Source: Candidatus Aenigmatarchaeota archaeon (GTDB lineage Archaea > Aenigmatarchaeota > Aenigmatarchaeia > CG10238-14 > SpSt-28). Taken from it: a DNA stretch of 64,000 nt. The notes beneath the pieces were generated by a model that was not told the DNA's origin, did no database searches, and was given only the letters and a program-made list of their open reading frames with translations. The stretch lies in assembly GCA_039000725.1 (NCBI GenBank), contig JAWBNO010000001.1, forward strand, positions 323,795-387,794, read 5' to 3'. This document shows positions 26,712 to 61,284 of this stretch, one piece after another. Position numbers and translations under genes: made by a program. Within the stretch, counting starts at the first letter, position 1, and every line of letters begins with the position of its first letter.

Positions 26712-26776
26712 ATATTAAAATTATCTCTCTAAACTTTTATATTGAGAATATAAAATTAAAAATCGGAGGGAGCAAA

Positions 26777-49242: not shown

Positions 49243-49305
49243 AGATTTTATTATTGTATTATTCGGTTTAAAAATCTTTTAAATATGGCAATAAAATACT
49301 AATTA

Positions 49306-56360: not shown

Positions 56361-57538
56361 AAGAGGAAAAAGAAGAAATAAGAATTTATCTGGAAAAAGA
56401 AAAAGCCTTTTCAACTAATTTAGATTTATCGCAGAGTTTTTTTGGTGATGTTAAAAACAATAAGGTTTACCTAGATCCAATAGAAGTTATTTATTTAGCT
56501 AATATAAGAAACGCTAAGGTTTTTGATGGAAAAAACCAATTATCTCTCTCTCAAATTTTTCAAAAATTTTTTTCGTTCCATTCTTTTGTTAGGTATAGTG
56601 TATTTAGAGATTGGAGAGATAGGGGGCTTTTTATTTCCTTTCCTAAGAAATTAGAGACTAAAGATTATGGTAAGAGTCCAGTAAAAAAGTATCCATCATC
56701 AGACTTTAAAATATTGACAAACTTTACTTTGTATTTTTTAAGAGAAGAGTGTTTTTCCTTAGCTTTCGGAAAAGAGGCTAAGAAAGCTTATGAAGAATAT
56801 TGGTTTGGCCAATGGGGAGTTTATAAAAATTATGAACGAGGAAATAATTTAACTTTAGATCCAATTGAAACTTTATATCTAGCAAAAAAAGGATTTGATG
56901 TTGTTGATATTTTTTCGAATGAAAAAATACAGTATGAAGATTTGGTTAAAGAAATAGAAAAGAGAATTCCACATATTACAAGAATTTTAGAAGTTTATGA
57001 AGATTGGCGAGATAAAGGTTTTATATTAAAAACTGGTTTTAAATTCGGTACTCATTTTAGAATTTATTTTCCCGGAGCAAAACCAGTATCTAATAAAAAA
57101 GAATGGATTCATTCTAAACATGTTCTTCATGTTTTTCCAAAGGAAGTTAGCATGCCTATGAGTGAATGGTCAAGAGCGATAAGAGTTGCACACAGTGTTA
57201 GAAAAACATTCATAATGGCAATTCCTGGAATGAAAAAGGAGGATTATTTAAGAGAAAAGACACCAATTGATTTTGTTGCTTGGCATAGAAAATCTGGAAA
57301 TCAAGTTGAAAGACCAGACAAAGATAATCCCTCTTTTTTAATCATTTCCTTAAATGAAGATGAAAACTTGAGCGGAAAAATGTTGGCTAGTGCTTTAGAT
57401 AGAGCAGATGAATTAGGATTAAGATTGTTGATAGCTATTAATGATAGGGAGACTAGTATAACATATTATTTAGCAAATAGGATAGAGCTTCCTGGTTCAG
57501 AACATAAATATTATGAGATAGAATGGTTTACTCCTTAA
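56357..57538 (+). CDS. endA: tRNA-splicing endonuclease, long multi-unit form (393 aa)
   Basis: Catalytic unit YEDWRDKGFILKTGFKFGTHFRIYFPG...HSKHVLHVF...RVAHSVRKTFIMAI (Tyr/His/Lys). It is preceded by a degenerate repeat (LDPIEVIYLANIRNAKVF...FRDWRDRGLFISF) and followed by about 100 extra C-terminal residues. Confidence 0.85.
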   Translation: MKEEKEEIRIYLEKEKAFSTNLDLSQSFFGDVKNNKVYLDPIEVIYLANIRNAKVFDGKNQLSLSQIFQKFFSFHSFVRYSVFRDWRDRGLFISFPKKLETKDYGKSPVKKYPSSDFKILTNFTLYFLREECFSLAFGKEAKKAYEEYWFGQWGVYKNYERGNNLTLDPIETLYLAKKGFDVVDIFSNEKIQYEDLVKEIEKRIPHITRILEVYEDWRDKGFILKTGFKFGTHFRIYFPGAKPVSNKKEWIHSKHVLHVFPKEVSMPMSEWSRAIRVAHSVRKTFIMAIPGMKKEDYLREKTPIDFVAWHRKSGNQVERPDKDNPSFLIISLNEDENLSGKMLASALDRADELGLRLLIAINDRETSITYYLANRIELPGSEHKYYEIEWFTP

Positions 57539-59144: not shown

Positions 59145-59772
59145 AATTCTGGCTGATCCCGCCAGAGACCACCACTATCCGGGTCCGACTAAGCCATGCG
59201 AGTCGTGAGGGGTGAGCCCTCGGCGTCCTGCTCCGTAATACGCAGTCAACCTACCCTAGGGAGGGGGATAATCCCGGGAAACTGGGGCTAATACCCCATA
59301 GGTGTAAGGCGCTGGAAGGCCCTTACACCGAAATGGCGCTCGTAGCCGCCCTAGGATGGGACTGCGGGGCATCAGGTTGTTGTCGGGGTAATGGCCCGAC
59401 AAGCCGATAACGCCTACGGGCCATGAGAGTGGGAGCCCGGAGATGGACTCTGAAACATGAGTCCAGGGCCTACGGGTCGCAGCAGGCGCGAAACCTTCGC
59501 AATGGGCTAACGCCCGACGAGGGGACCCGGAGTGCCCGTGCTTTGCACGGGCTGTTGCCCTCTGTAAACGGGAGGGCGAGGAAGGGGTGGGTAAGACGGG
59601 TGCCAGCCACCGCGGTAATACCCGCGCCCCAAGTGGTGGTCACGGTTATTGGGTCTAAAGCGTCCGTAGCCGGCCTAGTAAGTCTCGAGTGAAATCCTGC
59701 AGCAAACTGCAGGGCTTGCTCGAGATACTGCTAGGCTCGGGACCGGGAGAGGGCAGCGGTACGCATGGGGTA

Positions 59773-59880
59773 ATGAATAGTGTGCGTACCTTTGAGCTTA
59801 TGCGATGAAAAGAAATTTTTAATTATCACGAAGCTATAATTTTCACTAGAGATCAGAATCTTAGCACACTATTCACCCTA
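59773..59880 (+). other. 16S insertion/intron 1 (about 108 nt) within ggggta|aggggttaaatcc
   Basis: An AT-rich block splits the conserved GGGGTAGGGGTGAAATCC-type segment. Terminal inverted repeat tgaatagtgtgc / gcacactattca. Confidence 0.7.
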
Positions 59881-59957
59881 AGGGGTTAAATCCTGTAATC
59901 CCATGCGGACCACCAGTGGCGAAGGCGGCTGCCTGGAACGGGTCCGACGGTGAGGGA

Positions 59958-59996
<39 letters not shown>

Positions 59997-60095
59997 CATG
60001 AGTTAGGGTATCTTCTGATTTCAAGATGAGGAGTATCTAATCCTTTGAAAAATGATAATGCTCCCCACAGCTAGGACTCTAACTCATGCGGGAAA
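59997..60095 (+). other. 16S insertion/intron 2 (about 99 nt) within gattagataccccggta|gtcctagccgtaaacgatg
   Basis: Splits the universally conserved GGATTAGATACCC-GGTAGTCC block. Terminal inverted repeat catgagttag / ctaactcatg. Confidence 0.75.
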
Positions 60096-60347
60096 GTCCT
60101 AGCCGTAAACGATGCCCGCTTGCTGTCGCACGCTCTTCGGGAGCGTGCGGTGGCGGAGCGTAGGTGTTAAGCGGGCCACCTGGGGAGTACGCCCGCAAGG
60201 GTGAAACTTAAGGGAATTGGCGGGGGAGCACACAAGGGGTGGGACGTGCGGTTCAATTGGACTCAACCCCGAGAACCTTACCAGGGCCGACGGCAGGATG
60301 AAGGTCAGGCTGAAGACCTTACCAGACGAGCCGAGAGGTGGTGCATG

Positions 60348-60573
60348 AGAAGAATAGCCCTAAATCAAAAAAGTTTGTAACAAATGTATGAGATATACAC
60401 TAATAAGTATGAAAAAGGAAAAATGTCATTCCAGTCCAGAAGTGTATCGTAATGGTATAAATATCGAAGTTTGAATAAATACAAAAGTGAGTAATTTAGA
60501 ATTAATTGGGAAAAAATAGACAAGTTTCATTGAAAAATACTTACTCTTTTGAAAAGGGCTATTCTTCTGCAAA
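60348..60573 (+). other. 16S insertion/intron 3 (about 226 nt) within ggtgcatg|gccatcgtcagctcgt
   Basis: Splits the GGTGCATGGCYGTCGTCAGCTCGT block. 13-bp terminal inverted repeat agaagaatagccc / gggctattcttct. I saw no ORF of useful length. Confidence 0.75.
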
Positions 60574-60821
60574 GCCATCGTCAGCTCGTACCGTGAGGCG
60601 TGCCGTTAAGTCGGTTAACGAGCGAGACCCCCGCCCCATGTTGCTACTGCCTTCTCCGGAAGGCAGGCACTCATGGGGGACTGCCCGCGATAAGTGGGAG
60701 GAAGGAGGGGGCGACGGTAGGTCCGTATGCCCCGAAAGCCCTGGGCCACACGCGCGTCACAATGCGCGCTACAAAGGGATGCAACCCCGAAAGGGGAAGC
60801 AAATCCCCTAAAAGCGCGCCC

Positions 60822-60858
<37 letters not shown>

Positions 60859-60884
60859 CGGAATCCCTAGTAGGCGGACGTCAT

Positions 60885-60975
60885 CATGTTAGTCGGAAGA
60901 GTATGATTTACATGCACCACTACGAATTTTAAAAAATGAGGAAATGTGGGAAATGATCTTCCGGCTAGCATGAAA
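60885..60975 (+). other. 16S insertion/intron 4 (about 90 nt) in the hairpin between ctagtaggcggacg and cgttcgccgaatacgtccc
   Basis: AT-rich block with the terminal inverted repeat catgttagtcggaaga / tcttccggctagcatg. The boundaries are the least certain of the six. Confidence 0.6.
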
Positions 60976-60984
60976 GCGTTCGCC

Positions 60985-61021
<37 letters not shown>

Positions 61022-61088
61022 GCCAACCGAGTGGAGCTCCCTCGAGGCCGAAAGGTCGAGTGGGAGCTCCGCGAGGGGGGCTAAGTCG

Positions 61089-61147
61089 CCACGGGCGGCC
61101 AGACGAGTTAAAAGCTCGAATGATGATCTTTAATGTCTGGCTACCGG
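61089..61147 (+). other. 16S insertion/intron 5 (about 59 nt) within aagtcg|cgacaaggtagccgta
   Basis: Splits the AAGTCGTAACAAGGTA block. Inverted repeats gtcgcc/ggcgac and gccagac/gtctggc. Confidence 0.65.
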
Positions 61148-61163
61148 CGACAAGGTAGCCGTA

Positions 61164-61250
61164 AGGGTTAGCAGAGAGTTAGATGAAAAAATGGCTTGAC
61201 TCTGATTAATGATGAGTAAGGAGGTGATTAAATCTCTGCTAACTCGGCAA
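61164..61250 (+). other. 16S insertion/intron 6 (about 87 nt) in the 5' strand of helix 45
   Basis: Removing it restores ccgtact-ggaa-ggtgcgg (the helix 45 stem with a GGAA loop). Terminal inverted repeat gttagcagaga / tctctgctaac. Confidence 0.7.
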
Positions 61251-61284
61251 CTGGAAGGTGCGGCTGGATCACCTCCTTAATTTT

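Follow-up and report, generated by a model that had tools for sequence, protein, structure and literature searches.

An intron of an archaeal 16S rRNA gene that probably hosts a double-guide box C/D sRNA complementary to the rRNA's own 3′ tail

The sixth insertion in the 16S rRNA gene of an Aenigmatarchaeota (DPANN) archaeon is very probably a BHB intron carrying a double-guide box C/D sRNA of the sR13 family, and the 12-mer within it that is complementary to the 3′ end of the same rRNA is very probably the D guide of that sRNA. The source genome has 704,799 bases (0.70 Mb) on 14 contigs, and the window that we analyzed is a stretch of 64,000 nucleotides from it. Our reading draws on the anatomy of the element, its homologues, the covariation of its guides with their targets, the geometry of the BHB junction, and the protein genes that the genome encodes.

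Insertion 6 and its complements to the 16S rRNA

We placed the six insertions of the gene by alignment to the 16S of an intron-less relative. Read as its reverse complement, taaggaggtgat (61217-61228) of insertion 6 is identical to the 16S tail atcacctcctta (61268-61279), as an earlier note on this DNA had pointed out, and all of the coordinates that it gave match the sequence. The extra G-U pair proposed there can form between U61229 and G61267 to give a 13-bp helix, and the two boxes that it had seen nearby, CUGA at 61202-61205 and UGAUGA at 61210-61215, are both present. The helix also appears in the minimum-energy fold of 61140-61282, whose energy of -44.1 kcal/mol compares with -34.5 +/- 3.5 kcal/mol for shuffled controls (z -2.75, with 2 of 200 shuffles as good). 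When the insertion was shuffled 200 times, a 12-nt complement to the 1483-nt exons did not arise once, and each of the two 12-mers is found once in the 704,799-base genome on the strand as read: the guide lies in the intron, and the complementary 12-mer at the 16S tail. A chance origin of the 12-nt match is excluded.

There is a second complement within insertion 6 that is absent from the earlier note. The sequence TGGCTTGAC (61192-61200) is complementary to GTCAAGCCA (61017-61025), which in E. coli numbering is 16S 1405-1413 at the top of helix 44. The matches to the rRNA thus run over 9 nt at 1405-1413 and over 12-13 nt at 1530-1542.

The sequence and geometry of insertion 6 are those of a BHB intron in the 16S rRNA gene, predicted to be removed by splicing (Table 1). 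The rule that we applied calls for a 4-bp central helix and for a cut behind the second nucleotide of each 3-nt bulge. Of the six 16S insertions, five have a junction with 4/4 central pairs, and for intron 4 a good BHB junction was not found under this canonical rule. The motif of intron 6 has the 4-bp central helix and two 3-nt bulges, of which the 5′ bulge may be 4 nt, and we call it a relaxed motif because its outer helix has just 2 bp. The junction can be placed in two ways that differ by one A, in that removal of 61163-61249 yields an identical product. When GCCGUA is joined to CUGGAAGGUGCGGC, helix 45 is restored together with its GGAA loop, GCCGUACU-GGAA-GGUGCGGC. An intron at this site is present in some relatives and absent from others, and those that have it show the same BHB arrangement. 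In the inner stem, both sides have changed among relatives in 8 of 30 consensus pairs, for example GUUGGUAAAG/CUUUACCGAC.

The genome encodes the proteins that such an intron would need. There are two EndA-domain genes, and the one in the window precedes the 16S gene by about 2 kb. RtcB is encoded in a 1472-aa open frame (G000:C1:419964-424220), and its Pfam match is split in three, which suggests that the frame contains two inteins.

Table 1. Positions in the window of the 16S rRNA gene, of the predicted BHB and box C/D elements of intron 6, and of the proposed rRNA targets. A slash within a bulge marks the predicted cut.
Feature	Position	Strand	Basis or remark
Splicing endonuclease (EndA) catalytic domain, in a 412-aa open frame	56981..57226 (G000:C1:380775-381020)	+	PF01974, E 3.8e-21
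Archaeal 16S rRNA gene with six insertions	59146..61279	+	Rfam RF01959, 1252.8 bits
Target 1, GUCAAGCCA, 16S 1405-1413, helix 44 top; predicted site A1408 (61020)	61017..61025	+	D′ guide complement
Central 4-bp BHB helix, 5′ strand GCCG, then bulge UA/A	61158..61161	+	4/4 pairs with CGGC
Intron 6 (87 nt), BHB intron, at E. coli 1513/1514, 5′ strand of helix 45	61164..61250	+	alignment, BHB geometry
Inner intron stem, 5′ strand, also closes the sRNA	61166..61177	+	pairs with 61233-61244
Box C, AUGAAAA	61183..61189	+	alignment A1
D′ guide spacer, 12 nt, AAUGGCUUGACU; core 61192-61200 pairs with 16S 1405-1413	61190..61201	+	duplex -16.1 kcal/mol
Box D′, CUGA	61202..61205	+	nearly invariant among homologues
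Loop UUA between D′ and C′	61206..61208	+	
Box C′, AUGAUGA	61209..61215	+	kept in homologues
D guide spacer, 12 nt, GUAAGGAGGUGA	61216..61227	+	duplex -18.7 kcal/mol
Box D position, UUAA	61228..61231	+	UUGA, CCGA or CUGA in relatives
Inner intron stem, 3′ strand	61233..61244	+	stem covariation
Central BHB helix, 3′ strand CGGC, then bulge AA/C	61245..61248	+	pairs with GCCG
Target 2, 3′ tail GAUCACCUCCUUA (1530-1542); predicted site C1535 or C1536 (61272 or 61273)	61267..61279	+	

Other insertions of the same gene carry box-like elements as well. Introns 5 (61093-61151) and 6 (61164-61250) flank a 12-nt exon at 61152-61163 (AAGGUAGCCGUA), and intron 5 contains AUGAUGA, a 10-nt spacer, and CUGG, for which a clear rRNA target was not found. 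Intron 2 (59996-60094, core 60026-60048) has a box C/D unit composed of AUGAGGA, the 12-nt spacer GUAUCUAAUCCU, and UUGA; its guide matches the adjoining exon GGAUUAGAUAC over 11 nt, a length equaled in 1 of 200 shuffles, and further elements are GGGUAUCU beside CUGA and UGCUCCCC after AUGAUAA. In intron 4 (about 60895-60965), the stem GGAAGA/UCUUCC encloses C/D-like boxes, CAUGCACCAC is complementary over 10 nt to exon 60338-60347 adjoining the intron 3 site, and there is a weak Rfam CD-box match (sn1502, E 0.54). Elsewhere in the window, ATGATGA-TCACTTAGCTTTTC-TTGA at 1949-1973 on the minus strand is complementary over 9 nt to the 23S gene in its unspliced form and may be another C/D half-unit, but a match of such length could be chance. 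The 23S rRNA itself has a second, lower-scoring match on a 12-kb contig (G000:C9:605-3629, 2024 bits versus 2520.6 bits at C7:34772-38067), which could represent either a further copy or a contig of another organism.

Anatomy and targets of the intron-hosted sRNA

The elements inside intron 6 follow the layout C(7)-12-D′(4)-3-C′(7)-12-D(4), and a permissive pattern for this whole layout has one match in the whole genome, at intron 6. D′, the 3-nt loop, and C′ form a k-loop-type motif, and an internal pair of D′ (CUGA) and C′ (RUGAUGA) only a few nucleotides apart is common to all homologues. The tail complement spans 61217-61228, or extends to 61229 via the G-U pair, and the 12-mer of the earlier note corresponds to the D guide. 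That note had offered an intron-borne C/D-like guide against the 3′ tail only as an alternative reading, and it is this reading that is strongly supported, by the full double-guide layout, by the homology to sR13, and by the covariation of guides with targets. The genome also encodes fibrillarin and Nop5 side by side, plus L7Ae.

The outer boxes are more variable than the inner pair. In box C, AUG is invariant and the next A is kept in 90% or more of the 10 homologues of alignment A1, and free-standing homologues read AUGAUGA. The terminal D box is the weakest and has no canonical GA in the window's genus (UUAA). Because UUAA lacks the kink-turn GA and the C box retains only AUGA, the terminal motif is non-canonical, and methylation directed by the D guide may be inefficient in the window's genus. 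Homology to canonical copies is clear, so we regard the window copy as a degenerate member of the box C/D class and not as a separate kind of RNA. A search of Rfam gave only sub-threshold CD-box matches (sR35 with E 0.28 and sR5 with E 6.9), and the element is thus without a match to a curated family. Two other box assignments were tried and rejected: UAGAUGA as box C with a 15-nt spacer, because in homologues any of the four bases can precede AUGA, which itself is kept and fits with a 12-nt spacer, and GUGA within the guide as the D box, because it is not followed by a stem.

For the D′ guide, the N+5 rule points to A1408, and the offset to D′ is identical in every homologue. For the D guide, the nucleotide at N+5 drifts from C1533 in copies labelled Undinarchaeota or Altiarchaeota to A1534 in Nanoarchaeum equitans, C1535 in most of the order, and C1535 or C1536 here. 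Since this nucleotide drifts while the duplex is kept, a pairing role fits better than a fixed methylation site, which hints that the methyl group is no more important than the pairing with the tail. The tail match in the window's genus, at 12-13 bp, is longer than in most relatives, and in many relatives of family f2 the D guide matches the tail over 8-9 nt only. In one copy (L025), the match runs for 16 nt, starting GAUCA, and presumably extends past the end of mature archaeal 16S rRNA.

Homologues, hosts, and covariation of guides with targets

We identify the intron 6 sRNA, on likeness of sequence, as the counterpart of N. equitans sR13. The sequence of that RNA has been printed with 45,100 RNA-seq reads (Dennis et al. 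2015 supplement, PMC4644070), and a second source for sR13 is Randau 2012 (PMC3491384). Methylation at E. coli A1408 was predicted for N. equitans, and in the supplementary target table the sR13 row reads '16S A1395', the other guide being without a prediction (PMC4644070); N. equitans 16S A1395 corresponds to E. coli A1408. The two RNAs share the order of their boxes, the D′ guide (GGCUUGAC beside CUGA), the D guide (GGAGGUGAU), and an almost identical core, UGGCUUGACUCUGAUUA(A/G)UGAUGAG. They differ in that N. equitans sR13 is free-standing with its own promoter, whereas the window copy is in a 16S intron, and in that the boxes AUGAUGU and CUGA of the former are AUGAAAA and UUAA in the latter.

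A profile built from ten such modules (R1, from alignment A1) matches 83 of the 118 genomes of the window's order, mostly once per genome, with one match in the window genome. When 185,579 species genomes were scanned for the exact pattern, 46 loci came up, which are mostly from Aenigmatarchaeota, a few of them carrying the labels Undinarchaeota, Altiarchaeota, Micrarchaeota, or Hadarchaeum. When the copies in the order (n=84) are classed by host, 46 fall within the 16S gene and 35 within an anticodon-loop intron of a tRNA, 3 are unplaced, and none is free-standing. We found the host tRNAs using ARAGORN with introns allowed, as its default mode missed them. They are mostly tRNA-Ser(UGA), with 6 of the 35 called Thr or Ile by ARAGORN; the printed flanks of two of these (L060 and L135) show a Ser(UGA)-type gene, and we read the remaining ones as Ser(UGA)-type too. 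Families f3 and f4 have the module in tRNA introns only, f1 and f2 are mixed, and f5 has it almost only in tRNA introns, its single 16S match coming from a genome with 6% contamination. The module-bearing 16S introns occupy four sites (after ~1491, ~1499, 1512/1513, and 1520), all of them within a 30-nt stretch between the two targets.

In four MAGs labelled Undinarchaeota or Altiarchaeota, the copies are near-canonical, and a tRNA or 16S gene was not found around them; we inspected the intergenic context in two of the four. The fullest of these copies reads AUGAUGA-13-CUGA-UUGU-GUGAUGA-14-CUGA (L114). Because tRNA-hosted and free-standing copies must act in trans, action in trans is independent of hosting by 16S. 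The tRNA-Ser(UGA) gene of the window genome (G000:C1:169065-169178) has a 27-nt intron, AGUUAUCAAGAUCUGAUGAAAAUGAAG, with CUGA/UGAUGA-like remnants and without guides, and judging from these remnants it looks like what was left after the sRNA moved to 16S.

We compared guides and targets in an alignment of 29 distinct rows (A2), with shuffles (500) and slid partners as controls. Changes on both sides are seen in 9 pairs, as against 4.0 +/- 1.0 in the shuffles (0 of 500 as high) and 1-4 with slid partners, and 82% of the cells are paired, as against 31-45% in the slid controls. The both-side changes stem from a handful of lineages, and several of them cover runs of adjacent bases. The earlier note had named compensatory change in relatives as a check on the tail complementarity, and in this alignment the complementarity is kept.

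Individual rows illustrate this. The tail UCACUACAAA is paired with the guide UUUGUAGUGA. In genus g4, the tail GAUCACUACAAA faces the guide UUUGUAGUGAU in G013 and the tail UCACCAUAAA faces the guide UUUAUGGUGA in G011, while in both genomes helix 44 reads GUCAACCCA and its guide UGGGUUGA. At the same target, G019 and G049 have GUCAAACCA with the guide UGGUUUGAC, and the tRNA-hosted copy of G014 (genus g2) has the guide UUGGCGUGAC for GUCACGCCAA, the latter taken from congeneric genomes. G·U intermediates are present among the guide-target pairs, and the D guide tracks the tail even in lineages whose tail is without CCUCC.

Two further observations concern genus g2. The intron-less 16S of L001-L003 and L008 ends GGAUCACUCAGC..., without the CCUCC anti-SD. 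In L123, which is tRNA-Ser-hosted, the helix-44 guide is kept and the second guide is a different one, GGAAGGUUU, with a 9-nt match to 16S AAACCUUCC that is possibly due to chance, so that retargeting of the D guide is a candidate only.

Two intron RNAs come closest to this arrangement, the guide in the pre-tRNA-Trp intron of Euryarchaeota and the RNA from the tRNA-Met intron in N. equitans. The former is a box C/D sRNA in the pre-tRNA-Trp intron of Haloferax volcanii and Pyrococcus (sR50) (Clouet d'Orval 2001, cited in PMC7994747). As it is presented there, a BHB intron is a C/D guide against its own host transcript and is removed by EndA, as we propose for intron 6, but that guide resides in a tRNA and targets tRNA positions 34 and 39, whereas here both host and target are the 16S rRNA. 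Intron-hosted snoRNAs of eukaryotes and the chaperones U3 and U14 are alike in that a guide, made from an intron in the former case, pairs with pre-rRNA segments that are barred from early folding; unlike here, the host introns in eukaryotes are spliceosomal and belong to mRNA or non-coding genes instead of to the rRNA itself, and processing is by debranching and exonucleases. The 16S introns of Thermoproteales are reportedly either empty or occupied by homing-endonuclease ORFs, and we know of no guide RNA reported in them. Those BHB introns resemble the present one in lying in conserved 16S regions and in being patchy among relatives (Jay and Inskeep 2015). A 2021 review of archaeal C/D sRNAs gives their gene contexts as intergenic, tRNA-linked, and tRNA-intron, with rRNA-intron hosts unlisted, and a box C/D RNA in an archaeal rRNA intron was not found in the full texts of the archaeal papers that we searched. 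What is new is the host, in that an sRNA of a known family resides in an intron of the very rRNA that it targets, together with a newly assigned target, the anti-SD tail.

Alternative readings and the possible role of the pairing

From the observations above, we infer RNP assembly, methylation, a chaperone role, splicing at the RNA level, and action in cis or in trans, as follows. Intron 6 would be transcribed within pre-16S rRNA, and L7Ae, Nop5, and fibrillarin would assemble on its C/D and C′/D′ motifs. The D′ guide would pair with the decoding-centre strand of helix 44 (16S 1405-1413) and the D guide with the last 12-13 nt of 16S, the anti-SD tail, and the RNP would then 2′-O-methylate A1408 and C1535 or C1536. 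While bound, the RNP would be a folding chaperone that keeps both of these 3′ minor domain segments single-stranded and near each other. Cutting at the BHB by EndA and joining of the exons by RtcB would restore helix 45, and the excised intron would probably be circular and able to go on in trans. The 16S-hosted copy could act in cis as well, in which case the guide-tail helix would form a pseudoknot with the intron stem. For naked RNA in a nested fold, the cis guide-tail conformer is predicted at -44.1 kcal/mol and the BHB conformer at -39.4 kcal/mol, and because the former is the more stable, cis pairing and splicing would compete. It follows from the C/D model that the tail would be occupied transiently by the guide RNP, and in cis this may add a masking effect.

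The earlier note had proposed masking as the function itself: the 12-13 bp helix would hide the tail in unspliced 16S and bar immature subunits from SD-led mRNAs until splicing frees the tail. The guide-tail helix does dominate the predicted precursor fold and is more stable than the BHB conformer by about 4.7 kcal/mol, and the length of the match in the window's genus, its retention by compensatory changes, and the presence of SD-like sequences upstream of window genes (the aggtga at 49305 and ggaggg at 26766 that the note had cited each lie 6-7 nt upstream of an ATG) are all as this account would have it. However, such a mask is expected only with a 16S insertion, and the complement also exists where 16S is without such an intron, the same guide being found in tRNA-Ser introns and in free-standing sRNAs (four MAGs and N. 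equitans); thus the pairing predates hosting by 16S and needs none. The guide also tracks tails that have lost CCUCC, and the segment sits between the C′ and D boxes at canonical spacing. Furthermore, cis pairing excludes the BHB stem in a nested fold and so would hinder the very splicing that is meant to free the tail. What stands of the claim is the complementarity kept by compensatory change, whereas a conserved precursor-specific role is unsupported in view of the tRNA-Ser and free-standing copies and the tails without CCUCC. We consider it very unlikely that masking explains the element, and masking is at most a side effect of the C/D guide.

The pairing could instead be the whole function, with an RNP or the bare RNA on 1405-1413 and the tail ordering the late folding of helix 44/45 and of the 3′ end, without methylation, in at least this genus. 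This would account for the degenerate D box (UUAA) of the window's genus, for the drift of the D guide N+5 site between clades with the duplex kept, for the position of all four 16S host sites between the two targets, and for the 16-nt match of L025 from GAUCA, which we take to reach beyond the mature end. The idea has a precedent in the chaperone role proposed for double guides against nearby rRNA segments (PMC4644070). Against it are the offset of the D′ guide, which is exact in every homologue as for a fixed methylation of A1408, and the keeping of fibrillarin in a 0.70 Mb genome; moreover, chaperone and methylation roles are compatible. We regard pairing without methylation as rather unlikely. 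It is scarcely conceivable that the segment matches by chance, serves an ORF within the intron as its SD site, or arose as an inverted duplication of the 16S terminus. TAAGGAGGTGAT would make a perfect SD sequence, but an ATG was not found downstream of it in the 87-nt intron, where space is lacking; the likeness to the reverse-complemented 16S end breaks off after exactly 12 nt, a length that the 200 shuffles did not reach; and the segment covaries with non-SD tails. The covariation and the box architecture refute all three of these origins.

Returning to the intron-hosted guide, it is also conceivable, if rather doubtful, that C/D guides in these DPANN are cargo of BHB introns, that their own guide-target pairing steers where they land, and that the 16S copy is a 1:1 cis assembly checkpoint. 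The clustering of the 16S host sites between the targets and the use of tRNA-Ser(UGA) as host in other lineages are what this proposal builds on. If true, it would be an archaeal route to intron-hosted snoRNAs, and the decoding-centre strand and the anti-SD tail would be held until splicing frees both.

Introns near the 16S 3′ end may affect amplicon surveys of DPANN. The guide of N. equitans sR13 that is without a prediction in the published table is now assigned the anti-SD tail. A single-copy sRNA that switches between a tRNA intron and several rRNA intron sites is well suited to studies of how BHB introns and guide RNAs move, and it also has a bearing on the possible beginnings of intron-hosted snoRNAs. 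On the box C/D reading, an archaeal rRNA intron gains a likely job, which is to deliver a guide that would modify or chaperone the decoding centre and the mRNA-binding tail of its own rRNA.
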